From contig DASVDK010000177.1 in assembly GCA_036381125.1 (NCBI GenBank), positions 6,104 to 70,103 on the forward strand: a DNA stretch of 64,000 nt, read 5' to 3'. Each line of letters begins with the position of its first letter. The first letter of the stretch is position 1. The position numbers were made by a program, and so were the translations under genes. The notes beneath the pieces are model-generated. The model saw only the letters and a list, made by a program, of their open reading frames with translations. It ran no database searches and was not told the DNA's origin. Below are positions 5,408 through 58,854 of the stretch, one piece after another. The stretch comes from Thermodesulfobacteriota bacterium. Lineage in GTDB: Bacteria > DASVDK01.

Positions 5408-6631
5408 CTACCGCAGGGAGACGGTGATCGTCTTGCCGGTCTCGACGATGCGGCCCTGCTCGACCTTCGCGACGCTGAAGTTCCCGCGGCTGATGTTGCC
5501 GTGCTCGTCGAAGTCGATGGGGCCGCTCGCCCCTTCGTAGTTGATCCGCTGGCCCTCCCGGAGCCGCTTCGCGCCCTCCTCGAACCCGACGACCGCGACG
5601 CCGTCCGGACCGGACACCTGGCGCATCGTCCGGTTGATCGCCTCGCCGGAAGCCGTCCCGGCCGCCTCGATGGCGAGCGCCACGAGCTGGATCTGGTCGT
5701 ACGCCTGGGAGGCGAAGGGGTACGGCTTGCGCTCGCCCATGAGCGCGAGGAAGGCCTCGTGGGCCCTGCTGCCGCCCGCCACGCCCTCGTTGAGCATGAC
5801 GAGCCCCTCGGCCGGGCCTCGGCCGACGTTCGCGAGGAGGTCGGCCGTGACGGAGAAGCCGGGGGCGAGGAACTGCCCCTTGAAGCCTGCCTGGTACGCG
5901 TCCTTCAGGATCTGCGCCGTGTCCGGCTCGTACCCGGCGACGAGGACGACCTCCGCGCGCGACCGCACCACGCGGTCGACCTCGGCGCGATAGTTCGGCT
6001 GGTTCTCGGCGTAGGTCACCCGCTCGGCGAACTGCCCGCCGCCGGCCTCGATGCCCGCGCGGAAGGCGGCCACCATGCTGTCCGCGTAGGGGACCTGCAG
6101 CTCGAGCGCGGCCGTGCGCCGCGCGCCGCTGCCGAGCGCGTACTGGGCGAACGCCCGGCCGAAGAAGGCGTCGTCGGGCTCGGTGCGGTAGACGAAGCCG
6201 CGCTTCTGGATCTCCGTGATGCGGCTCGCGCCCGACGTGCTCATCTGCACGACCTTGTTCTCGATGCAGATGGGCGCGACGGCGAGCGTCTCGCCGCTCG
6301 CCCAGCTCCCGATCACGGCGACGACCCTGTTCACGTCGATGAGCTTCTTCACGCCGCGAACGGCCGCCTCGGGGTTGGTTTGCGAGTCCTCGACGAAGAG
6401 CCGGATCCGCCGGCCGAGGGGGCCGCCGGCCGCGTTGATCCGCTCGACGGCGCCCGTGATGGCCTTCTGCATCTCGGCCCCGAAGGGGCCGCCCGCGCCG
6501 GTGAGGGGGGTGAGGACGCCGACCGGGATCGGGTCCGCCGCCGCCGCGAATGCCCGCAGCGGCGAGGCGCCCGCGAGTCCGGCCGCCGCCGCGGCGAGCA
6601 CCGTCCGTCGAGAAACCGTCCACGTGGCCAT
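5408..6631 (-). CDS. livK: branched-chain amino acid ABC transporter substrate-binding protein (LivK-like)
   Basis: Starts MATWTVSRRTVLAAAAAGLAGASPLRAFAA (Tat/Sec-like signal) and has a periplasmic binding fold. An AGGAGG SD precedes the ATG at 6631. Confidence 0.85.
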   Translation of the reverse strand: MATWTVSRRTVLAAAAAGLAGASPLRAFAAAADPIPVGVLTPLTGAGGPFGAEMQKAITGAVERINAAGGPLGRRIRLFVEDSQTNPEAAVRGVKKLIDVNRVVAVIGSWASGETLAVAPICIENKVVQMSTSGASRITEIQKRGFVYRTEPDDAFFGRAFAQYALGSGARRTAALELQVPYADSMVAAFRAGIEAGGGQFAERVTYAENQPNYRAEVDRVVRSRAEVVLVAGYEPDTAQILKDAYQAGFKGQFLAPGFSVTADLLANVGRGPAEGLVMLNEGVAGGSRAHEAFLALMGERKPYPFASQAYDQIQLVALAIEAAGTASGEAINRTMRQVSGPDGVAVVGFEEGAKRLREGQRINYEGASGPIDFDEHGNISRGNFSVAKVEQGRIVETGKTITVSLR

Positions 6632-6761
6632 CGGGCGCCTCCTTGCCTGCTCGCCGCTTGCCGGCGACTCCCGGATAGGGTAGATGTAACCCCGTTCTGG
6701 CTCGTGGGTCAAGGTCGACTTCAAAATATTGAACTCCTGCCGGAGGGGATCGATTCCGCCG

Positions 6762-7385
6762 ATGGACGCCACCATGGCCCGCCGCCTGCGCGAGCTGCGG
6801 CACGCGAGCGGTCTGACGCTTGCCGAGGTCGCCCGGGCCACACGCCTGTCCCCGTCGTTCGTGAGCATGGTCGAGACGGGAAAGACCGACATCTCGCTCG
6901 CGCGGCTCCTCTCGCTGGTGACCGCGTACGGGGTGACCATCCACGACCTGTTCGCCGACAGCGCGACCCCTGCCGGGCGCCGGGAGGCGCGCGTGATCCG
7001 CCGCTCCGGCTACGTGTCGGTGCCGCTCGCCGACCGGGGCGTGCGGCTCCTCCTCCTGGCGCCGGCAGCCGAGCGCCGGCTCGAGCCGGTGTTGATCGTG
7101 ATCGACCCGGGGGCGGGGCTCGGCGCGCCGCTCAGGCACGAGGGGGAGGAGTTCGTGTACGTAATCGAGGGGGAGGTGACGCTGACGGTCGGACGCCGCC
7201 GCCACCGGCTCGGGCGGGGCGAGACGGCCTACTACTCGTCCACGCTGCCCCACCGGTTCGCCAACCCGGGGCGGCGGCGGGCGGTGCTCCTCGGGGGCGC
7301 CACCTACTCGCCGCTGCACGTGCACGGCATCGGCCGGGGCGTGGGTGCGCCCGCTACGCCACCGCGAGACGGACGCCGGCGGTGA
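6762..7385 (+). CDS. XRE-family HTH plus cupin domain transcriptional regulator
   Basis: HTH LRELRHASGLTLAEVARATRLSPSFVSMVETGK followed by a cupin (…EFVYVIEGEVTLTVG…). It is divergent from livK. Start chosen at MDATM because an SD-like ccggagggga precedes it. Confidence 0.75.
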   Translation: MDATMARRLRELRHASGLTLAEVARATRLSPSFVSMVETGKTDISLARLLSLVTAYGVTIHDLFADSATPAGRREARVIRRSGYVSVPLADRGVRLLLLAPAAERRLEPVLIVIDPGAGLGAPLRHEGEEFVYVIEGEVTLTVGRRRHRLGRGETAYYSSTLPHRFANPGRRRAVLLGGATYSPLHVHGIGRGVGAPATPPRDGRRR

Positions 7386-8067
7386 GGCCGGGGTCGAGCG
7401 GGCCGCGCGGCGCGCCCGCTCGCGCCGCGAGCGTGACGGCGAGCGGCCCGGCCGCGCCGACCGCGGCCACGTACTCGAGCCGGTGCGGGCCGAGCGTCAC
7501 CTCGAGGCCCGACCGCGTCGGGTCGAGGCCCGCGGCCGCGGCGACGACGGCGGCGATGCGGGCGGGGTCCCGGGCGCCGATGGTGACCGCGACGAGCCCG
7601 GTGACGCCGTTGGCGTGCGGGGCGGCGGCCGGCACGCGCGCCTCGCGGGGCGTGTCGTCCTCGATCAGGAAGGGCGCGACGCCGAGATCGGCCGGCGGCG
7701 GGAAGGCGAGCCGCCACCGCAGCGTGTAGCCGTCCGGCCTGACCCGCGTCCAGGGGGCCGGGTCGGTGTAGCGCAGGCCCGCGCGGTCGAAGGCGGCCAG
7801 GTCCGCCGCGAAGTCGGTCGTCCGCAGACAGACGTCCACGAGCCCGCCGCCCCGCTGGCCGGCGGGCCACCAGCGGTGCTCGGGGGCCGGCTCGAAGAAG
7901 GCGACGAGCTCGAGGTAGGAGCCGTCCTCGAAGGGGACGAGCGCGTTGTTCGTGCCGCGCGCATGGCGTCCGCCGGGCACGACGGTGAAGCCGAGCCGCG
8001 CGTACCGGTCCTCGGCCTCCGCGAGGTCGCCGACGAGGACCACGACGTGATCGATCCCGGCGAGCAT
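7354..8067 (-). CDS. VOC/glyoxalase-family protein
   Basis: N-terminus MLAGIDHVVVLVGDLAEAEDRYARLGFTV is typical of glyoxalase/bleomycin-resistance folds. Its ATG overlaps the stop of the upstream GntR gene (ATGA). Confidence 0.7.
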   Translation of the reverse strand: MLAGIDHVVVLVGDLAEAEDRYARLGFTVVPGGRHARGTNNALVPFEDGSYLELVAFFEPAPEHRWWPAGQRGGGLVDVCLRTTDFAADLAAFDRAGLRYTDPAPWTRVRPDGYTLRWRLAFPPPADLGVAPFLIEDDTPREARVPAAAPHANGVTGLVAVTIGARDPARIAAVVAAAAGLDPTRSGLEVTLGPHRLEYVAAVGAAGPLAVTLAARAGAPRGPLDPGLTAGVRLAVA

Positions 8068-8786
8068 CAGCGCGGAGGCGGCAGGGCGAGGACCATGCGG
8101 TGACGGTCGGCCCTGGAAAAGACCTGGCTGAAGAACACCGGCCGACCGTCGGCGTCGAGGTACCGGCGCTCGGCCTCGAGGACCGGCGCGCCGACCTCGA
8201 TGCCGAGCGCGGGCGCGAAGGCCGGGTCGGCAAGCCCCGCGGAGATCGTCTGGTGCACCGACGCGACCGCCACGCCGAAGCGCCGCGACAGGAGGGCGAC
8301 GATCCGCGTGCGCGCCAGTTCGGCCTGCGCGTCGAGCACCTTCAGGCCGAGGGCGTGAGGCAGGTAGGCGACGACGAAGGCGATGGGCGCCCGGGCGAGA
8401 TACGCGACGCGGTCGATCGCGACGACCGGGGCTTCCGGCGCGAGCGCGAGCCGCTCGGCGATGCGCGGCGTCGCGCGCACGGTCCGATGGTCGACCACGC
8501 GCAGGGCGTCGCCCTCGCCGCGCATCAACTCGACGAGCCCGCCCGGCGGCGTCTCGATGCGGTCCCTCGGCGCGCCGATGTAGAACGTCCCGCGCCCCTG
8601 CTCGCGCCGGATCGTCCCGTCACGCTCGAGCACGCGCAGCGCCTGCTGGATGGTGATGCGGCTGACGTCGAACTCCGCGCAGAGGTCCGTCTCGGACGGC
8701 AGCCGGTCGCCGGGGGTGTACTCGCGCTCGAGCCGCGCCTCGATGATGCGCTTGATCACATAGAACTTGGCGACGAGGGGGCGCAC
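8067..8786 (-). CDS. GntR-family (HutC/UTRA-type) transcriptional regulator
   Basis: wHTH PSETDLCAEFDVSRITIQQALRVLERDGTIRREQGRGTFY plus a C-terminal UTRA-like domain. Confidence 0.8.
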   Translation of the reverse strand: MRPLVAKFYVIKRIIEARLEREYTPGDRLPSETDLCAEFDVSRITIQQALRVLERDGTIRREQGRGTFYIGAPRDRIETPPGGLVELMRGEGDALRVVDHRTVRATPRIAERLALAPEAPVVAIDRVAYLARAPIAFVVAYLPHALGLKVLDAQAELARTRIVALLSRRFGVAVASVHQTISAGLADPAFAPALGIEVGAPVLEAERRYLDADGRPVFFSQVFSRADRHRMVLALPPPR

Positions 8787-12345: not shown

Positions 12346-13053
12346 ATGAGGATCGAGGACCGACTTGCCGCGTACGACTGGGCCGCCGTCGAGCGGAGCC
12401 TCGCCGAGCGGGGCTACGCCCGCCTTCCCGGCCTGCTCACGCCCGACGAATGCGCCGGCGTCGCCGCCCTGCACGGCGATGCCGGCCGCTTCCGCAGCCG
12501 CATCGACATGGCTCGCTACCGCTTCGGCGTCGGCGAGTACGGGTACTTCGCCCAGCCGCTGCCGCCGATCGTCCAGGCGCTCCGCACGCACGCCTACACG
12601 CCCCTCTCGGCGGTGGCGAACCGCTGGATGGCGGCCCTCGGCGGCCGGGAGCGCTTTCCCGGCGACCTCGAGACCTTCCTGGCCCGCTGTCGCGCCAGGG
12701 GCCAGCGGCAGCCGACGCCGCTCCTGCTGCGCTACGAGGCGGGCGGCTACAACTGCCTGCACCAGGACCTCTACGGCGACGTGGCGTTCCCGCTGCAGAT
12801 CGCCATCGTCCTCTCGCGACGGGACGTGGACTACGAGGGCGGGGAGTTCCTGCTCGTCGAGCAGCGGCCGCGGGCCCAGTCCCGCGGCGAGGCGATCGCG
12901 GTCGACCAGGGAGAGGGGATCGTCTTCACGACGCGCTACCGCCCGGCCCAGGGAGCCCGGGGCGCCTACCGGGTGAGCGTGCGCCACGGCGTCAGCACGA
13001 TCCGCCGCGGCGTCCGCTTCACCCTCGGCATCATCTTCCACGACGGGAAGTGA
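12346..13053 (+). CDS. 2OG-Fe(II) oxygenase family protein
   Basis: HQD…H-type jelly-roll motifs (NCLHQDLYGD, VSVRHGVSTI) and overall similarity to prolyl-hydroxylase-like oxygenases. Confidence 0.7.
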   Translation: MRIEDRLAAYDWAAVERSLAERGYARLPGLLTPDECAGVAALHGDAGRFRSRIDMARYRFGVGEYGYFAQPLPPIVQALRTHAYTPLSAVANRWMAALGGRERFPGDLETFLARCRARGQRQPTPLLLRYEAGGYNCLHQDLYGDVAFPLQIAIVLSRRDVDYEGGEFLLVEQRPRAQSRGEAIAVDQGEGIVFTTRYRPAQGARGAYRVSVRHGVSTIRRGVRFTLGIIFHDGK

Positions 13054-13160
13054 TCCGTTCGCACCCGAGCGCCGCTCCGCTCCGGCCCGAGCGAGTGGCG
13101 GAATGGCGAGGTCGCGCCGCGTCGGCGGCGCGACGTGCCGTGGCCCGTGACGACCGGACG

Positions 13161-13415
13161 CTAGCGCCCGCCGCCGTGGTCGAGGTCGTAGGGGGCGGGG
13201 CGCGAGACCAGCCGGACCGCGTCGAGCCGGGCCGGCGCCTGGGCCGAGTCGATCTCGCCGTTGACGATGCGGCCGGCGCCCGGCAGCGGCGCGGGCGCGC
13301 TCACGACCTGCACCGGGGCGTCCTTCTCCATGGCGACCTCGTCCATCGCGCCGGCGAACGCCGGGGTGGCCGAGAGGGTGACGAGCGCGGCGGCGGCAAA
13401 GAGCAGGGGCTTCAT
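13161..13415 (-). CDS. small secreted protein, paralog A (84 aa)
   Basis: Signal peptide MKPLLFAAAALVTLSATPAFAGA. A strong SD aggaaggag precedes the start. Paralogous to 17827..18084 (shared PLP/AGxxVNGExD core). Confidence 0.6.
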   Translation of the reverse strand: MKPLLFAAAALVTLSATPAFAGAMDEVAMEKDAPVQVVSAPAPLPGAGRIVNGEIDSAQAPARLDAVRLVSRPAPYDLDHGGGR

Positions 13416-13685
13416 GGCGGGGCTCCTTCCTCGTATCGGGGGCGCGGCCTGCACGACCGCGCCGCGTGATCTCCTGCGCGGGAGCGAGAGCAGGAGCCGT
13501 GCCGGTCCCGGTGCGCGGGGCGGGAGACGGTCGAAAAGGGACGTGCGGACGAGGAGTTGCGGAGATGTCGCCGGTGCGGCCCGGCCGCGGCGACCGCGCC
13601 GCGGCCGGCGGCGTGCTTCACGCTGCAACGCGAGTGCTCCAGATCGGATCAGGGGAGCCCGATCCGGATCGCCGACGGCGAGCCG

Positions 13686-14105
13686 CTACCGCGCGGCGTA
13701 CCGGCGGGCGAGGTGGCCGGCGAGCATGCCGAGCGCGTAGAGGAGGCTCGAGGCGCTCCACCAGAAGACGAGCCCCCCGATCCAGAACGTGGCGCCCGCG
13801 TCCTCGGGGACGCGCGCGGCGGCGCTCCCCGGGTCGAGCATCGCCGGCACGAAGCGGAACGCGACGAGGACCAGGGAGGCGCCCCAGCCGAAGCCGAGGA
13901 CCTCCCGGAACGTGCGCAGGCGGATGCCGAAGGCGAGGACGACCAGCAGGCGCGGCGCGAGGATCGCCGCCGCACCGGCTCCGAGCGGGTAGAGCACCTG
14001 CTCGCCGAGGACGATGGCCGCGGCCAGGGCGGCGAGGCTCGCGAGGAACCAGCCGACCGGGAAGGGGGCCTCCGGGGGGGGCGCGCCCCCGGTCGGACCG
14101 GACAC
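13686..14105 (-). CDS. small hypothetical membrane protein (about 139 aa, 4 predicted TM)
   Basis: Hydrophobic ORF whose GTG start abuts the ilvD stop (taGTG). Only this part of the 262 aa track ORF avoids overlapping ilvD. Confidence 0.45.
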   Translation of the reverse strand: MSGPTGGAPPPEAPFPVGWFLASLAALAAAIVLGEQVLYPLGAGAAAILAPRLLVVLAFGIRLRTFREVLGFGWGASLVLVAFRFVPAMLDPGSAAARVPEDAGATFWIGGLVFWWSASSLLYALGMLAGHLARRYAAR

Positions 14106-15784
14106 TAGCCGGTCACCGCCCCTTCGGACGCGGACGACACGAGCTTCGCGTACTTCGCGAGCACGCCGGTCGTGTACATCGGCTTCGGCGGCTTCACCGC
14201 CTTGAGGCGGCGCTTGAGCTCGGCGGCGGAGAGCTCCACGTCGAGCCGCCGCTTCTTGATGTCGATCGCGATGACGTCGCCGTTCCTGATCGCGGCGATC
14301 GGTCCCCCGTCGGCCGCCTCGGGCGCCACGTGGGCGATCATGAAGCCGTGCGTGGCCCCGGAGAAGCGTCCGTCGGTGATGAGGGCGACCGAGCCGCCGA
14401 GGCCGGCCCCCTGCAGGGCGGCGGTCACGTGCAGCATCTCGCGCATGCCGGGGCCTCCCTTCGGCCCCTCCCACCGGATGACGACCACGTCACCCGGCTT
14501 GATCTTGCCCGCCTTCACCGCCGCGAAGGCGTCCTCCTCGCGCTCGAAGACGCGGGCGGGGCCGCGGTGGGCGTCGCGGCTCTGGCCCGAGACCTTCGCC
14601 ACGCACCCGTCGGGGGCGAGGTTGCCCCTGAGGATGACGAGGCCGCCGTAGCTCTTGAGCGGCTGGTCGACGGGGCGGATGACCGTCTGCCCCTCGGGCT
14701 CGCGCGCCGCGCGCGCCTCCTCGCCGATCGTCCGGCCCGTGACCGTCTTCTCGTCGGGGTGGAGGAGGCCCGCCTCGAGCAGGCGCTTCGCCACGACCGC
14801 CATGCCGCCCGCCTCGTACATCTCCGGCGCGGTGTAGCGGCCCCACGGCTTCATGTCGGCGAGGACCGGCACCTTGCGGGCGATGCGGTCGAAGTCGTCG
14901 ATGGAGAGCCTGACGCCCGCTTCGCGCGCGACGGCGAGGAGGTGCAGGACGGCGTTCGTGGAGCCGCCGGTCGCCATCACGCCGGCGATCGCGTTGAAGA
15001 GCGCCTTGCGGGTGATGATCTGCCGCGGGAGCAGGCCGCTCCTCAGCACCTCCATCATGATCCGACCGGTCTCGAACGCCGCGCCGCCCTTGTCCTTGTG
15101 GAGCGCGGGGACGCCGTTGGCGCCCATGGGCGACACGCCGAGCATCTCGAACGCGGTCGCCATCGTGTTGGCCGTGAACTGGCCGCCGCACGCCCCGGCG
15201 CCGGGGCAGGCCCGGCTCTCGATCTCGCCGAGTTCGCAGGCGTCGATCCGCTTCGCGTTGTACGACCCGATCGCCTCGAAGACGTCCTGGATCGTGAGCC
15301 GCCGGTCCTTGTACTCCCCGTACATGATCGAGCCGCCGTAGAGCAGGACCGACGGGATGTTCAGGCGCGCCATGGCCATGGCCATGCCCGGGATGGTCTT
15401 GTCGCAGCCGGCGATGCCGACGAACCCGTCGAGCCCGTGACCACGCACCACCAGCTCCACGGAGTCGGCGACCAGCTCCCGGCTGACGAGGGACGCCTTC
15501 ATCGCCTGGGTACCCATGGAGATGGCGTCGTTCACCGAGATCGTGTTGAACTCGATCGGCGTGCCGCCGTTCGCGCGGATGCCGTCCTTCACCTTCTCGG
15601 CCACCGCCCGGTGGTTGAAGTTGCAGGGGGCGATCTCGATCCAGCAGTGCGCGACCCCCACCAGGGGCTTGCGGAGGTCGTCGTCGGTGAAGCCGATCGC
15701 CTTGAACATGGCTCGGGCGGCCGCGCGGTCCGCGCCGTCGAGCAGGACACGGCTCTTGTGCCGGGCGTCGAAGGCCACGGTCAC
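14105..15784 (-). CDS. ilvD: dihydroxy-acid dehydratase
   Basis: 559 aa with the CPGAGACGG Fe-S cluster motif. Full-length and recognised as IlvD along its whole length. Confidence 0.95.
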   Translation of the reverse strand: MTVAFDARHKSRVLLDGADRAAARAMFKAIGFTDDDLRKPLVGVAHCWIEIAPCNFNHRAVAEKVKDGIRANGGTPIEFNTISVNDAISMGTQAMKASLVSRELVADSVELVVRGHGLDGFVGIAGCDKTIPGMAMAMARLNIPSVLLYGGSIMYGEYKDRRLTIQDVFEAIGSYNAKRIDACELGEIESRACPGAGACGGQFTANTMATAFEMLGVSPMGANGVPALHKDKGGAAFETGRIMMEVLRSGLLPRQIITRKALFNAIAGVMATGGSTNAVLHLLAVAREAGVRLSIDDFDRIARKVPVLADMKPWGRYTAPEMYEAGGMAVVAKRLLEAGLLHPDEKTVTGRTIGEEARAAREPEGQTVIRPVDQPLKSYGGLVILRGNLAPDGCVAKVSGQSRDAHRGPARVFEREEDAFAAVKAGKIKPGDVVVIRWEGPKGGPGMREMLHVTAALQGAGLGGSVALITDGRFSGATHGFMIAHVAPEAADGGPIAAIRNGDVIAIDIKKRRLDVELSAAELKRRLKAVKPPKPMYTTGVLAKYAKLVSSASEGAVTG

Positions 15785-15847
15785 ACCTCCCGTCGTGAGA
15801 AATGGTGGCTGCGGGGAAAACGCCGGAATTCTAGCACCAGGCGGGGC

Positions 15848-16774
15848 TCACGCGACGCTCGCCGGGTCGGTGTTGCCGCCGCAGACGAGGACGGCCACCC
15901 GCTCGCCGGCGCCCGGCCGGTAGGCCCCCGACGTCACGGCGGCCAGCGCCGCGGCGCCGCCCGGCTCCGCCACCACCCGGAGCGCCTCCCAGAGGGCGCG
16001 CTGGGCGGCGCGGATCGCCTCGTCGTCGACGAGCACCACCCGCTCGACGTGCGCCCGGGCCAGCGCGAACGCGAGGTCACCAACGCGCCTGGCGCCGAGG
16101 CTGTCGGCCGCGATCCCGCCCACCTCCACGTCCACCGGCCTGCCCACCGCCAGCGCCGCGTGCAGGGTTGGGGCCCGGACCGGCTCGACCCCGATCACGC
16201 GCACCCGGCCGGCGAACCAGGCGGCGGCGCCCGCGACGAGGCCGCCGCCCCCGACGGCGACGACCACCGTGTCGAGCCCGCCGGCCTGCCGGTCGAGTTC
16301 TCGGAACAGGGTCCCCTGGCCGGCCACGACCTCCGGCTGGTCGTAGGCGTGGACCACCAGGGCGCCGCTCTCCGCGGCCCGCCGGTCGGAGGCGGCCTTG
16401 GCGTCGGCGTAGGTCGCGCCGGTGACCGTCACGGCCGCGCCGTAGCGCCGGAGCCGCTCGACCTTCACGGGCGAGGCGACCTCCGGGACGAAGATCTCCG
16501 CCCGGTGGCCGAGCACGCGGGCCGCCCAGGCCACGGCCGCGCCGTGGTTTCCGCCGGAGGCGGCGATGACGCCGGCCGCCGGCACCTCGGCCGAGAGGAT
16601 CCGGTTCAGGGCGCCGCGCGGCTTGAAGGAGCCGGTGTGCTGGAGCGACTCGAGCTTGAGGACGAGCGGCGCGGCCGCGCCCAGGGCCCCTCCCTCCAGC
16701 GCGATCACGGGGGTCTCGCGCACGCGGCCGGCGATGCGATGCGCGGCCGCGTCGATGGCGTCTCGATCGACCAT
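15848..16774 (-). CDS. PLP-dependent threonine/serine dehydratase
   Basis: PLP lysine motif in ESLQHTGSFKPRGAL, plus the GGGGLVAG glycine loop. Confidence 0.85.
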   Translation of the reverse strand: MVDRDAIDAAAHRIAGRVRETPVIALEGGALGAAAPLVLKLESLQHTGSFKPRGALNRILSAEVPAAGVIAASGGNHGAAVAWAARVLGHRAEIFVPEVASPVKVERLRRYGAAVTVTGATYADAKAASDRRAAESGALVVHAYDQPEVVAGQGTLFRELDRQAGGLDTVVVAVGGGGLVAGAAAWFAGRVRVIGVEPVRAPTLHAALAVGRPVDVEVGGIAADSLGARRVGDLAFALARAHVERVVLVDDEAIRAAQRALWEALRVVAEPGGAAALAAVTSGAYRPGAGERVAVLVCGGNTDPASVA

Positions 16775-16838
16775 GCGGCTAGCCTAGCGCGGGTTCGGCC
16801 TGCTAGACTCCGCCACCGCGCGCCCGAGGAGGAGGACC

Positions 16839-17645
16839 ATGGTCGAACTCTGTCGCCGCATCGCCGAACATCCGGCGTTCCAGCACGTGATCCTGGTGGT
16901 CATCCTCGTCAACGCCGTCGTGATCGGCTTCGAGACGTCGCCCGCGGTCATGGCCCGGTGGGGCGGGTTCCTGCTCGGGCTCGGCACGGCGATCCAGGCG
17001 CTCTTCGTCGTGGAGATCCTCGTTCGCCTCGTCGCCTACTGGCCGCGGCTCGGCCGCTTCTTCACCGACGGCTGGAACGTCTTCGACTTCCTCGTCGTCG
17101 CGATCTCGCTCGCGCCGCAGGCCGGCCCGTTCTCGACCGTGGTCAGGCTCGCGCGGGTGCTGCGCGTCGCGCGCCTGCTGTCGGTGGTGCCGGAGCTGCG
17201 GCTCATCATCGGCACGATGCTCCGCTCGATCCCCTCCATGGGGCACGTGATCGCGCTCCTGTCGCTCCTCCTGTACATCTACGCCGTCGTCGGCTTCTAC
17301 CTCTTCGGCCGTCACGACCCGTCCCACTGGGGTTCGCTCTCGCAGGCCTTCCTCACTCTCTTCCAGATGCTCACGCTCGAGGGGTGGGTGGAGATCCAGG
17401 CGACCAGCATGGAGGCGGTGCCGCTCGCCTGGATCTACTACGCGAGCTTCGTCGTGGTCGCGGTCTTCGTCGTGATCAACCTGTTCATCGCGGTCGTCCT
17501 CAACAACCTCGAGCGGGCGAAGGACGAGGAGCAGGCGGAAGCCGACCGCAAGAGCCCGCAGGGCGCGCTCATCGAGCAGGTCGAGCGGCTCAAGGCCGAG
17601 CTCGCGCGGCTCGAGCGGGACCTGAGGGCGTCGGGGAGGTCCTGA
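16839..17645 (+). CDS. bacterial voltage-gated ion channel (BacNaV/NaChBac family), selectivity filter TLEGWVE
   Basis: 6TM architecture. S4 sensor VRLARVLRVARLL has Arg at every third position. The pore helix and filter read FQMLTLEGWVEIQ, and a C-terminal coiled-coil is present (ERLKAELARLERDLRA). Confidence 0.85.
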   Translation: MVELCRRIAEHPAFQHVILVVILVNAVVIGFETSPAVMARWGGFLLGLGTAIQALFVVEILVRLVAYWPRLGRFFTDGWNVFDFLVVAISLAPQAGPFSTVVRLARVLRVARLLSVVPELRLIIGTMLRSIPSMGHVIALLSLLLYIYAVVGFYLFGRHDPSHWGSLSQAFLTLFQMLTLEGWVEIQATSMEAVPLAWIYYASFVVVAVFVVINLFIAVVLNNLERAKDEEQAEADRKSPQGALIEQVERLKAELARLERDLRASGRS

Positions 17646-17826
17646 CTCCGGGGGGCGCGCTCGCCTCGTCCTCGTCGGCGAGGCGTTCCGTGCGATGCAG
17701 GCCCGTCGCTTCCGGGCGTCGGCGCTCCGATCTCCGGATGATGGCCCGTCAGTCACGCGGCCCGAGATCACCGATCTCCGCGACCCGGCGCCCGTCGTCG
17801 TGCGGGTGGAGAGCCCCCCGAGGGAT

Positions 17827-18084
17827 TTACCGGTCGCGATCGGTCGCCGGGCGCAGGTCGCTCGGGTACGTCGCCACGCGCTTGCGTTCCGCGCGGGACG
17901 GGGCGCCGGAGCCGTCGCTCTCGCCGTTCACCGTCTTGCCGGCCGGCATGGCCAGGGGCGAGGGGGCGGCGGTCTCGATTACCATGCGCCGGTCCCGGGC
18001 GATCTCCTCGATGGGCCTGGCGGCGGCAGGCGTGGCGGCGATGGCCGCGAGCGCGACGGCAAGCGCGACGAACGGGGTCTTCAT
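17827..18084 (-). CDS. small secreted protein, paralog B (85 aa)
   Basis: Signal peptide MKTPFVALAVALAAIAATPAAA. The core PLAMPAGKTVNGESDGSGAPSRAE aligns with paralog A. ATG inferred at 18084 inside the 143 aa track ORF. Confidence 0.6.
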   Translation of the reverse strand: MKTPFVALAVALAAIAATPAAARPIEEIARDRRMVIETAAPSPLAMPAGKTVNGESDGSGAPSRAERKRVATYPSDLRPATDRDR

Positions 18085-18530
18085 GGCGGCGGTCCTCGGG
18101 GAGGTACGCCCGCCCGGGGAGCATGCTTCGTGCCGGGGCGGGCAGTCACGCAAGAAATCGAAGAGAGACGGCCGCTTACGTGACACTCCTGTGAGGATCG
18201 CGGACTTCCCGCTGCGGCACGGCATTGCGAAACGGAACGACGCCCGCTCCACATGCAACAGAGCCTCGGCCCTCCGAATCGGAGCCTGCGTCGATCAGGG
18301 GCGGAAGCGCTGTACATTGGAGCCTCGCGAAGGTCCACATGGGACGATCGGAGTGACCGTATGGCCTGCGAGACGCCTTTCGTGCCCGCTTCTGGGGGCT
18401 CGTGTGCGATCGCTGGCGCGCGTGGAGCATCGGAGAAGCGCCCGTGTCCCTCTCCGAACTGGATCCCGAGATCGTCGCCGAACACGGTCCCGTGAATGCC
18501 AGCTTGCCGAGGCTCGTCCAGGCGCGGCCG

Positions 18531-19118
18531 CTACCCGGCCTGGAGGAGCCGCACGGCCCGCCCTTCTCGTGCGATCCGCCCCTCGGCCTCGAGCGCGGCG
18601 AGGGTCCGGTAGAGCGCTTCGTGCGTGAGGCCGATCTCGGCCGCGACCTGCTTGAGCGGACGATCGCCGCCGATCGCGCCGCGCGGGGCCAGGGCGAGGT
18701 ACTGGAGGACGCGCGCCCGCGCCGATCGGACGTTGCGCAGCTCGAGGCGCGCACGGAGCACCTGGATCTGCGCCGCCATCTGCCGCATGAAGCCTTCGGC
18801 GACCTCCGGGTCCGCGCGCAGGGCGCGCCTCACGGCCGCCCGGGGCAGCACCGCGACGCGCGAGGGGACCTCGGCCACGGCGTCGCAGTGGTAGCGGTCG
18901 GAGAAGAGCGCCGCCTCGGCGAACGTCTCGCCCGGGCGAGCCACGTGCACCGTCACGCCGACCCCCTCGCTCGTGTGCCGGACGAGCAGCACCCGCCCCG
19001 CCTCGACCACGAAGATCGCGGTCGTCGCGTACCCCTGTCGGAAGAGGGCTTCTCCGGCCGCGAGGTCGCGCCGCCGCGCGGAGTCGAGGAGCGCGGCGAA
19101 GGGGTCGGCCGCCGTCAT
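18531..19118 (-). CDS. Crp/Fnr-family transcriptional regulator
   Basis: cNMP-binding domain followed by a C-terminal HTH (QVAAEIGLTHEALYRTLAALEAEG). ATG at 19118 overlaps the stop of the upstream decarboxylase (ATGA). Confidence 0.8.
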   Translation of the reverse strand: MTAADPFAALLDSARRRDLAAGEALFRQGYATTAIFVVEAGRVLLVRHTSEGVGVTVHVARPGETFAEAALFSDRYHCDAVAEVPSRVAVLPRAAVRRALRADPEVAEGFMRQMAAQIQVLRARLELRNVRSARARVLQYLALAPRGAIGGDRPLKQVAAEIGLTHEALYRTLAALEAEGRIAREGRAVRLLQAG

Positions 19119-44191: not shown

Positions 44192-44752
44192 CTACTTGCC
44201 CTTGAGGGAGAGGATGTAGGCTACGAGGGCGTGCCGGTCGGCCTCCGGGAGCGAGGCCCAGGAGACCATCGCCGTTCCGGGCACCCCGTTGGTAATGGTC
44301 TGAAAGATCTGGTCCGGCGAGCCGCCGTGCTTCCACTCGTCGTCGGTCAGGTCCTGCGGCTTCGGGTTGAGGGCCGCGGCGGCCGGCCCGTCGCCGTGCC
44401 CGCTGGCGCCGTGGCAGGTGGCGCAGTTCTGGGCGAAGAGCTGCTGGCCGCGCTGGACGTCACCGCCGCCACCGCCACCGCCCGCCGGGGCCGCCGCGAC
44501 CTGCGTGCCGCCGCCTGCCCCGGGGCTCGCCTCGGTGGTCGCGCCGGCGGGCGACTCATCGGCGGCCGGTGCTGCAGGGGAGGCGGCGGCCGTGGGGCCT
44601 GCCGGGGACGTCGCCGCCTGCGGGCTCGAGGCGGCCTGACCGCCCGGCGCCGGAGATTCGCCCTGGCTGCAACCGGCGGCGAGCCCGCCGCCGAGCAGGG
44701 CCGATGCCATCAGTGCTGCCACGCGCCCGGAAACCGGGAAGAGCTGTCGCAT
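44192..44752 (-). CDS. lipoprotein cytochrome c (class I) with Ala/Pro/Gly-rich linker
   Basis: Lipobox LAAGC, a low-complexity linker of about 80 aa, then heme-binding CATCHG and …AMVSWASL…. Confidence 0.8.
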   Translation of the reverse strand: MRQLFPVSGRVAALMASALLGGGLAAGCSQGESPAPGGQAASSPQAATSPAGPTAAASPAAPAADESPAGATTEASPGAGGGTQVAAAPAGGGGGGGDVQRGQQLFAQNCATCHGASGHGDGPAAAALNPKPQDLTDDEWKHGGSPDQIFQTITNGVPGTAMVSWASLPEADRHALVAYILSLKGK

Positions 44753-44988
44753 GTGAGTCCTCCTTACGGGAGACCAGGTGAGTTAATTAGAGGAGACGCT
44801 GCCGGGGGGCGCGGTCTCGAGGACCGGGTGAACAGGCGAGCAAGAAGCGCGCCGGCCTGTCGCGAGCCTGGGTGGCGCTATCCTATCGCGTCCGGACGCT
44901 CGCTGCCGGTAGCCGGTCAGGGGATCTGCCCCACGTCCTGCGGCGCAGCGCCGGGTCCGTGCTCGGGCGAGCGATCGGGAGAGGCCCA

Positions 44989-50422: not shown

Positions 50423-50515
<93 letters not shown>

Positions 50516-50563
50516 TCTGTGGAGGCGGGGTGCCCGGGGCGCCCCGCGTCGCCTGCATGCCCC

Positions 50564-50657
50564 GGAGAGATGTCCGAGTGGTTGAAGGAGCACGCCTGGA
50601 GAGCGTGTAGGCTGGCTCAAACCGGCCTCGAGGGTTCGAATCCCTCTCTCTCCGCCA
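50564..50657 (+). tRNA. tRNA-Ser (anticodon GGA)
   Basis: Same acceptor stem, anticodon loop CUGGAGA, long variable arm, TTCGAATCC T-loop and a 3' CCA. Confidence 0.9.
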
Positions 50658-50689
50658 GACACGCAGCAGCCCCGCCAGGCCGGCGCCGT

Positions 50690-50803
50690 GAGCGGTGGTC
50701 GCTGGGTCCTTCGCAACGGAGCGCGGCGAACCCCGCCAGGTCCGGAAGGAAGCAACGGTACCCGTTTCCTCCGTGTGCCGAAGGGGTGCCTAGCGATCAC
50801 CCT
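50690..50803 (+). ncRNA. ffs: signal recognition particle RNA (4.5S/ffs-like)
   Basis: Contains CAGGUCCGGAAGGAAGCA (helix 8 motif) and GUGUGCCG. The 5' GGUGGUCGCUGGGUCC can pair with the 3' GCCUAGCGAUCACC. It sits upstream of dnaX as in scr-dnaX-ybaB-recR arrangements. Ends are approximate. Confidence 0.7.
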
Positions 50804-58700: not shown

Positions 58701-58779
58701 CACCGGACGGCCCGGCTCTTACCATGACCTCTCTTCGCGCGCCCAACCCCACGGCGCGCCAGCCGTTATTCCTCGGTAG

Positions 58780-58854
58780 CTCAATGGTGGAGCAAGCGGC
58801 TGTTAACCGCAAGGTTGCAGGTTCGAGTCCTGCCCGAGGAGCCAACTGACCAGG
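58780..58854 (+). tRNA. tRNA-Asn (anticodon GTT)
   Basis: TCCTCGG acceptor, D-arm GCTCAATGGTGGAGC, anticodon loop CUGUUAA, T-arm GGTTCGAGTCC and a 3' CCA. Confidence 0.9.

Follow-up and report, generated by a model that had tools for sequence, protein, structure and literature searches.

What could make two small, related genes for exported proteins respond together when they lie several kilobases apart, with other genes between them? We have addressed this question in a stretch of 64,000 nucleotides (the window in what follows; positions 6,104 to 70,103 of contig DASVDK010000177.1, GenBank assembly GCA_036381125.1) with 73% GC, which belongs to a metagenome-assembled genome (MAG) labelled “Thermodesulfobacteriota bacterium” by NCBI. 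An initial annotation, made from the sequence alone, had described here two minus-strand open reading frames (ORFs), called paralogs A and B below, as a co-regulated pair of secreted proteins that share an upstream string and bracket a module with ilvD and an ion channel. Co-regulation is likely, although on another basis than the string and the inverted repeat first pointed out. Judging from the upstream DNA, A and B are probably switched on together, because each has its own sigma-54 type promoter and a matching site further upstream.

Both ORFs are present as described, A at 13161..13415 (minus strand, 84 aa) and B at 17827..18084 (minus strand, 85 aa), and the distance of ca. 4.6 kb given for them corresponds to 4669 bp from start to start. 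They are carried in the MAG under the locus tags VF406_10310 and VF406_10335, respectively. The predicted signal peptide of A, MKPLLFAAAALVTLSATPAFA, precedes an acidic mature part of ca. 61-63 aa (isoelectric point, pI, 4.7), and that of B, MKTPFVALAVALAAIAATPAAA, precedes a basic one of 63 aa (pI 9.7). The sequence features expected of Sec signal peptides, i.e., K/R in the N-terminus, then ca. 15 hydrophobic residues in a row and an AxA motif, are found in each, and so is the core AP.PL..AG..VNGE.D...AP noticed earlier. With 35% identity over 52 aa (BLASTP, E=2e-7) and these signal peptide features, the description of A and B as paralogous small exported proteins without assigned function holds. 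The ORFs are retained in orthologs, with identities of 88, 79, and 71% at equal length for A and of 84, 76, and 65% for B. The pairwise ratios of nonsynonymous to synonymous substitution rates (dN/dS) were 0.3-0.8 for A and 0.3-0.75 for B, below 1 in both cases, yet clearly above those of the neighbouring genes (0.1-0.25). Shine-Dalgarno (SD) sequences are conserved as well. That of A, GGAAGGAG (13423..13430, minus strand), stands 7 nt before the ATG and is invariant in four orthologs, and that of B, GAGGA (18093..18097, minus strand), is kept in three of the loci that we fetched for comparison (numbered with an L; here L013, L002, and L014). The annotated ATGs are likely the true starts, since the indels seen upstream of them in the ortholog alignments are not multiples of three. 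A and B are therefore real genes, and we consider it fairly probable, as one component of the overall explanation developed below, that they are anciently duplicated and separately transcribed.

The alignments of ortholog upstream regions contain one invariant block for each gene, cGGCACGgctccTGCt in A (13489-13504) and cGGCACGaagcaTGCt in B (18120-18135), and in both the GG and GC doublets are exactly 10 nt apart in a common cGGCACG-N5-TGCT arrangement, which fits the published sigma-54 consensus TGGcacg-N4-5-tGCtat (PMC2831329). On the minus strand the putative promoter of A reads CGGCACGGCTCCTGCT (13489..13504; GG at 13503-13502, GC at 13491-13490), with a predicted transcription start at ca. 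13479, and that of B reads CGGCACGAAGCATGCT (18120..18135; GG at 18134-18133, GC at 18122-18121), with a predicted start at ca. 18110. Each matches 10 of the 12 positions of TGGCACG-N4-TTGCW. The A promoter is conserved in L001 and L012 and, with one mismatch, in L006, and the B promoter in L013, L002-L005, and L024. There are exactly two copies of the pattern GGCACGNNNNNTGCT in the 64 kb, where 0.20 would be expected; both are correctly oriented and stand 51 and 89 nt ahead of the ATGs of the paralogs. Across the homologs, whose upstream DNA is otherwise unalignable, 13 of the 24 fetched loci have the same pattern, each of them once and each time just before the family gene, and these include loci with unrelated neighbourhoods (L018-L020 and L023). 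Variants of it, TGGCGT or TGGCCT followed by N5-TTGCT, appear in L016, L017, and L022. Between 12900 and 18700 we found no sigma-70-like promoter and detected no intrinsic terminator.

Farther upstream, an unbiased positional test (all 6-mers with one mismatch, in any 34-nt window, over six upstream regions that are independent of one another and were anchored at the promoter) picked GTTTCA-like words in all six regions at about -141 to -108 (p=7e-9; none of 100 shuffled sets was as good). The half-sites are GTTGCA at -125 in A, and GTTGCA at -124 together with GTTCCG at -103 in B; L013 and L018 also have pairs, spaced by 20-21 bp, and L016 and L023 have single sites. In A the word is part of an enhancer-like dyad, CGTTGCA-GCG-TGAAGCA (13614..13630, minus strand), located 126 bp upstream of the promoter 16-mer and kept in four A-type orthologs. 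Its counterpart in B, TGTTGCA-TG-TGGAGCG (18245..18260, minus strand), lies 125 bp upstream of the promoter 16-mer, and the second half-site of B, GTTCCG (18233..18238, minus strand), is found 21 bp downstream of the dyad, on the promoter-proximal side. The dyad of the A group, CGTTsCA-N3-TGAAGCr, is matched at 12 of 12 positions in L018 (0 of 200 shuffles as good) and at 11 of 12, with a 2-nt spacer and at an equal distance from the promoter, in B and in L002 (0 of 200 shuffles each). Within the window, it is found at these two places only.

Two observations can be added for the same kinds of elements. A palindrome, GATCC-N5-GGATC, adjoins the A dyad on its upstream side (13634-13650, minus strand), with GATCCGATCTGGATC in L001, L006, and L012 and GGAGC in the window; it could represent a second, degenerate enhancer site at a distance of 21 bp. 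The other is a further GG-N10-GC site, CGGCGCGCTTCTTGCT, at 44839-44854 (minus strand), which stands 87 nt ahead of an ATG that is well placed and has a strong SD. The corresponding ORF (44192-44752, minus strand) starts with MRQLFPVSGRVAALMASALLGGGLAAGC, a lipoprotein-like signal, and may represent a second exported protein driven by sigma-54. No CGTTsCA dyad was visible ca. 125 bp upstream of the GG-N10-GC site.

Several facts speak against the assignment to sigma-54 or against a common upstream site. Searched with two mismatches, the generic sigma-54 consensus gives four matches in the window where 4.9 are expected by chance, so that the argument is one of conservation and placement and not of consensus strength. 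The T at -26 and the T at -15 of the consensus are not retained. One homolog locus, L021, is devoid of the GG-N10-GC motif, and a sigma-70-type alternative there is only our own reading of its sequence. The window contains neither rpoN nor a gene for a bacterial enhancer-binding protein (bEBP), as judged by the absence of a GAFTGA motif and of any tblastn match with the AAA+ domain of NtrC. As to the dyad, its full form is a weaker match in L023 and falls short of significance in L013, L016, and L022, and its spacer is 3 nt in A vs. 2 nt in B.

Sigma-54 promoters are expected to start transcription ca. 12 nt past the GC and to have a bEBP enhancer ca. 80-150 bp upstream. Compared with well-known sigma-54 promoters that are served by bEBP enhancers, such as glnAp2 (NtrC) and prpBCDE (PrpR), the two upstream regions are alike in the GG and GC doublets 10 nt apart, in a dyad, here a candidate enhancer, located ca. 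100-130 bp upstream, in the T-rich stretch between dyad and promoter and in the absence of a detectable -35/-10 promoter. They differ by a C for T at -26, by the lack of TT before the GC and by the lack of an adjacent activator gene. The PrpR enhancer, CGTTTCATGAAACG (Table 1 of PMC4987338), is matched by the half-site CGTTsCA at 6 of 7 positions per half, although the spacer of 2-3 nt has no equivalent in the PrpR site, and we take the resemblance of the sequences as a lead only.

The best explanation that we can offer is that A and B have RpoN promoters of their own, answer to a common bEBP and give rise to an exported acidic/basic pair. A signal sensed elsewhere would activate a bEBP encoded outside the window. 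This protein would most likely bind the CGTTsCA-N2-3-TGrAGCr dyad ca. 125 bp upstream of each promoter and, in B, would also use the second half-site two helical turns away. Looping over the T-rich stretch would then bring it to the RpoN-RNA polymerase, with open complexes being formed at both promoters. Two monocistronic mRNAs, starting at ca. 13479 and ca. 18110, would result, so that one signal would induce both genes, and Sec export with cleavage after AxA would deliver two polypeptides of ca. 60 aa, acidic A and basic B, to the periplasm or the medium. Taken as a whole we regard this explanation as reasonably likely; its regulatory part stands at that level or somewhat above, up to quite likely, and what it says about the biochemical role is a guess.

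The proteins themselves belong to an orphan family. In a set of 5.8 billion clustered proteins, just three further sequences are closely homologous to each ORF. Only 10 clusters were retrieved when 1.84 billion representatives were searched exhaustively with a profile, and a second, word-indexed profile search raised the family to a total of ca. 19 sequences (cluster representatives). All of them have 80-90 aa (one miscalled start was corrected), and ORF length and signal peptide are kept across homologs with 35-45% identity. The layout of a Sec signal for signal peptidase I, in which a basic N-terminus is followed by a core of 12-17 hydrophobic residues and by an AxA motif with its small residues at -3/-1, was recognized in 19 of the 19 members. 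Throughout the family the mature part begins with a DEVA-like sequence and contains the core GxGxxV(T/N)(S/G)ExDG, followed in most members by the tail YPxxxRPxFDRGQ. The mature parts are rich in Pro, Gly, Ala, and Ser and free of Cys, except for one residue in the member P0019. In charge, the A-type and most relatives are acidic (pI 4-6) and the B-type of the A/B clade is basic (pI 8.6-10.6). Acidic and basic types occur together in single assemblies, e.g., GCA_040960095.1 and SRR34572451. A contig scan of GTDB species genomes detected a member in only one, on the same contig as L001, and scans of metagenome contigs found no relatives. Scans of A and B against Pfam and NCBIfam gave no family match, and the family profile run against Pfam and PDB sequences returned signal-peptide-level noise only (T4 Spackle, residues 1-53; PepSY_2, residues 2-27; LPAM_1). 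The AlphaFold2 model built on a family alignment of 16 sequences has a predicted local distance difference test (pLDDT) score of 57 and a predicted template modelling (pTM) score of 0.17, with nothing more than the signal helix and a tiny hairpin, and these values make it too poor for a fold search; in this model the mature part of ca. 60 aa is poorly structured. We also noticed that the database start of P0019 (98 aa; L024, 113-149) falls within the -12 element of the predicted sigma-54 promoter (tcATGCTcc). Its true start is probably the ATG at 141 or 147 of L024, which leaves almost no leader and no SD.

Other ways to account for the transcription of A and B deserve to be weighed against sigma-54 control. 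One is that the GG-N10-GC blocks are coincidental or serve another purpose, with the genes being transcribed by a housekeeping or extracytoplasmic function (ECF) sigma factor, or A by read-through from the ilvD operon. In its favour are the background-level match to the generic consensus in DNA of 73% GC, the apparent use of a different promoter by L021, and the position of A, co-directional with and 273 bp after the ilvD and 139-aa genes, with no intrinsic terminator detected. Nevertheless, both in the window and in 13 loci the exact 11-base pattern is located solely before family genes, within upstream DNA that cannot otherwise be aligned, and no sigma-70-like site came up between 12900 and 18700, so we judge this possibility unlikely. 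Less probable still is the control first suggested, by way of a gccgc..gtgaNNctcctgNgNgga string common to A and B and with the inverted repeat of B serving as a further operator or as an RNA hairpin. Both strings are indeed present close to where they had been located (GTGATCTCCTGCGCGGGA in A, GTGACACTCCTGTGAGGA in B), although they can be aligned only with indels. When the whole upstream regions were aligned locally, the top score was 22, whereas dinucleotide shuffles averaged 23.3 and reached at least 22 in 341 of 500 cases; the proposed segment alone scored 14. The similarity is thus no better than chance. Nor are the positions equivalent: in A the string comes just past the promoter, in the predicted leader (about +1 to +17 of the predicted transcript), and in B it precedes the -24 element by ca. 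35-60 bp. The B ortholog L013 does not have the string. The 10-bp inverted repeat, GTCACGCAAG-N20-CTTACGTGAC on the plus strand (18145..18184), does exist, one base away from the coordinates first given, with arms at 18145-18154 and 18175-18184 that are complementary at 9 of 10 positions around a loop of 20. It is situated between the enhancer-like sites and the promoter of B, and encloses a T-rich patch. Its RNA fold is in its favour (z=-2.4; 5 of 200 shuffles as good), but repeats of equal quality are expected 1.44 times per shuffle of the B intergenic region, with at least one in 60% of shuffles, in L002, a close relative, the arms are complementary at only 6 of 10 positions, and L013 lacks the element. 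It is probably not a conserved functional element, and the regulation built on the string and the repeat can be considered largely refuted. Some other candidates were also discarded in these regions. The DNA upstream of B had seemed unusually conserved between the window and L002, a comparison that is uninformative because the whole locus is ca. 93-95% identical, and orthologs do not retain the GC-rich palindromes at 13580-13611 and across the B promoter (18108-18143). A search for exact palindromes across the upstream regions yielded nothing in common.

Control of A could also be dominated by its leader, if GCAGGAG and the GC-rich 9-bp hairpin, GGCGCGGTC-N5-GGCCGCGCC (13441..13463, minus strand, overlapping the 3′ end of the string discussed above for A), acted as a cis-regulatory RNA, be it an attenuator, a riboswitch-like device or a stability element. 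The hairpin is kept in four orthologs, and GCAGGA is also found near the predicted start in L018 and L016. Nonetheless, RNAalifold applied to the four A-type leaders retained all nine pairs with one-sided changes only and no compensatory ones, these orthologs being too close for their conservation to be informative; Rfam has no family in 13000-18700 (at gathering thresholds and also at E<=1) and B has no equivalent. From its sequence, the hairpin could be an RNA stability element or, equally, a DNA operator, and a dominant role of the leader seems to us improbable, even more so than coincidence or read-through. At the level of the products, A and B might be precursors of secreted bioactive peptides (a bacteriocin, a ribosomally synthesized and post-translationally modified peptide, or signal peptides in the sense of communication) and not periplasmic proteins. 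They are small, predicted to be exported, fast-evolving (dN/dS up to 0.78), come as an acidic/basic pair and have no predicted fold, all of which would suit such precursors. On the other hand, no conserved modification enzyme, dedicated transporter or immunity gene accompanies any member of the family, the signal is a standard Sec signal with AxA and not a double-glycine leader, and there are no clusters of Cys, Ser, or Thr. This alternative is very improbable.

Family scans confirmed the ilvD, threonine dehydratase and channel genes previously recognized between A and B: the segment holds a 139-aa protein without family match, put down as a small membrane protein in the initial annotation, ilvD, a pyridoxal phosphate (PLP)-dependent serine/threonine dehydratase (PALP) and, on the other strand, an Ion_trans channel. 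A gene for a Crp/Fnr-like regulator is found upstream of B, and an Oxygenase-NA gene is convergent with A. Parts of this arrangement recur elsewhere, with the order channel, PALP, ilvD, 139-aa gene, A in L001, crp-like gene, B, channel, PALP in L002-L004 and ilvD, 139-aa gene, A in L006-L012. The idea that A and B functionally bracket the channel/ilvD module is not supported, as the order is kept only in relatives with ca. 93-95% nucleotide identity. More distant members have quite different neighbours, hydantoinase and SnoaL genes in L016, NifU, SelB, and Peripla_BP_6 genes in L018, and other genes on short contigs, which indicates that the family is a stand-alone gene.

A few features of the flanking DNA can be mentioned in addition. 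Upstream of B the window retains a remnant of a gene for a 182-aa protein, an internal fragment of 160 bp (18365..18524, minus strand; window vs. L002 by blastn, with the gene calls of L002). This gene is intact in L002, and the window also lacks another 948 bp of L002 that contain a 229-aa gene. In L002 (1915-3173) the 182-aa and 229-aa genes are divergently oriented and sited between the crp-like gene and B, both are absent from L013, and neither has a Pfam or NCBIfam match. In L016 the ca. 1.5 kb (6700-8196) that precede the family member contain neither a called gene nor a convincing ORF. Elsewhere in the window we found two long-arm tRNAs followed by a small signal recognition particle RNA (50423-50798, the latter at 50700-50798) and one more tRNA at 58770-58841.

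As for what the products might do, the small stress-induced periplasmic proteins of the YhcN/BhsA type (DUF1471) are, like A and B, Sec precursors of ca. 85 aa with several paralogs per genome and without an enzymatic domain; A and B differ from them in having no Pfam match to DUF1471 and in the predicted type of promoter. Another parallel is ZraP, a sigma-54-dependent periplasmic protein of enterobacteria controlled by ZraR (PMC4987338). Like A and B, for which both features are predicted, it is a small exported protein with its own sigma-54 promoter, whereas A and B show no similarity to it in sequence or fold and have no divergent sensor/bEBP operon beside them. They do not belong with ZraP, CpxP, and Spy, which have a helical LTXXQ-type domain, since Pfam and NCBIfam gave no match and the AlphaFold2 model (pLDDT 57) has no helix outside the signal peptide. 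By analogy with ZraP, an accessory role in envelope stress or nutrient limitation is plausible. A bolder proposal, which we regard as a long shot, is that acidic A and basic B are partner subunits of an undescribed, sigma-54-controlled extracytoplasmic module restricted to a poorly sampled soil lineage. If that were true, a heterodimer of the two, periplasmic or secreted, could for example act back on the sensor of the activating bEBP system, in the manner of ZraP on ZraS, or serve as an intercellular signal.

Beyond the regulatory side this is an ordinary result, a known promoter architecture placed before hypothetical secreted proteins. What changes is that an orphan family from a nearly unsampled high-GC soil lineage gains a testable regulatory handle, in the form of a putative RpoN promoter and a candidate enhancer. 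If the activator and its signal were identified, one regulon would be added to the sigma-54 repertoire of the group.

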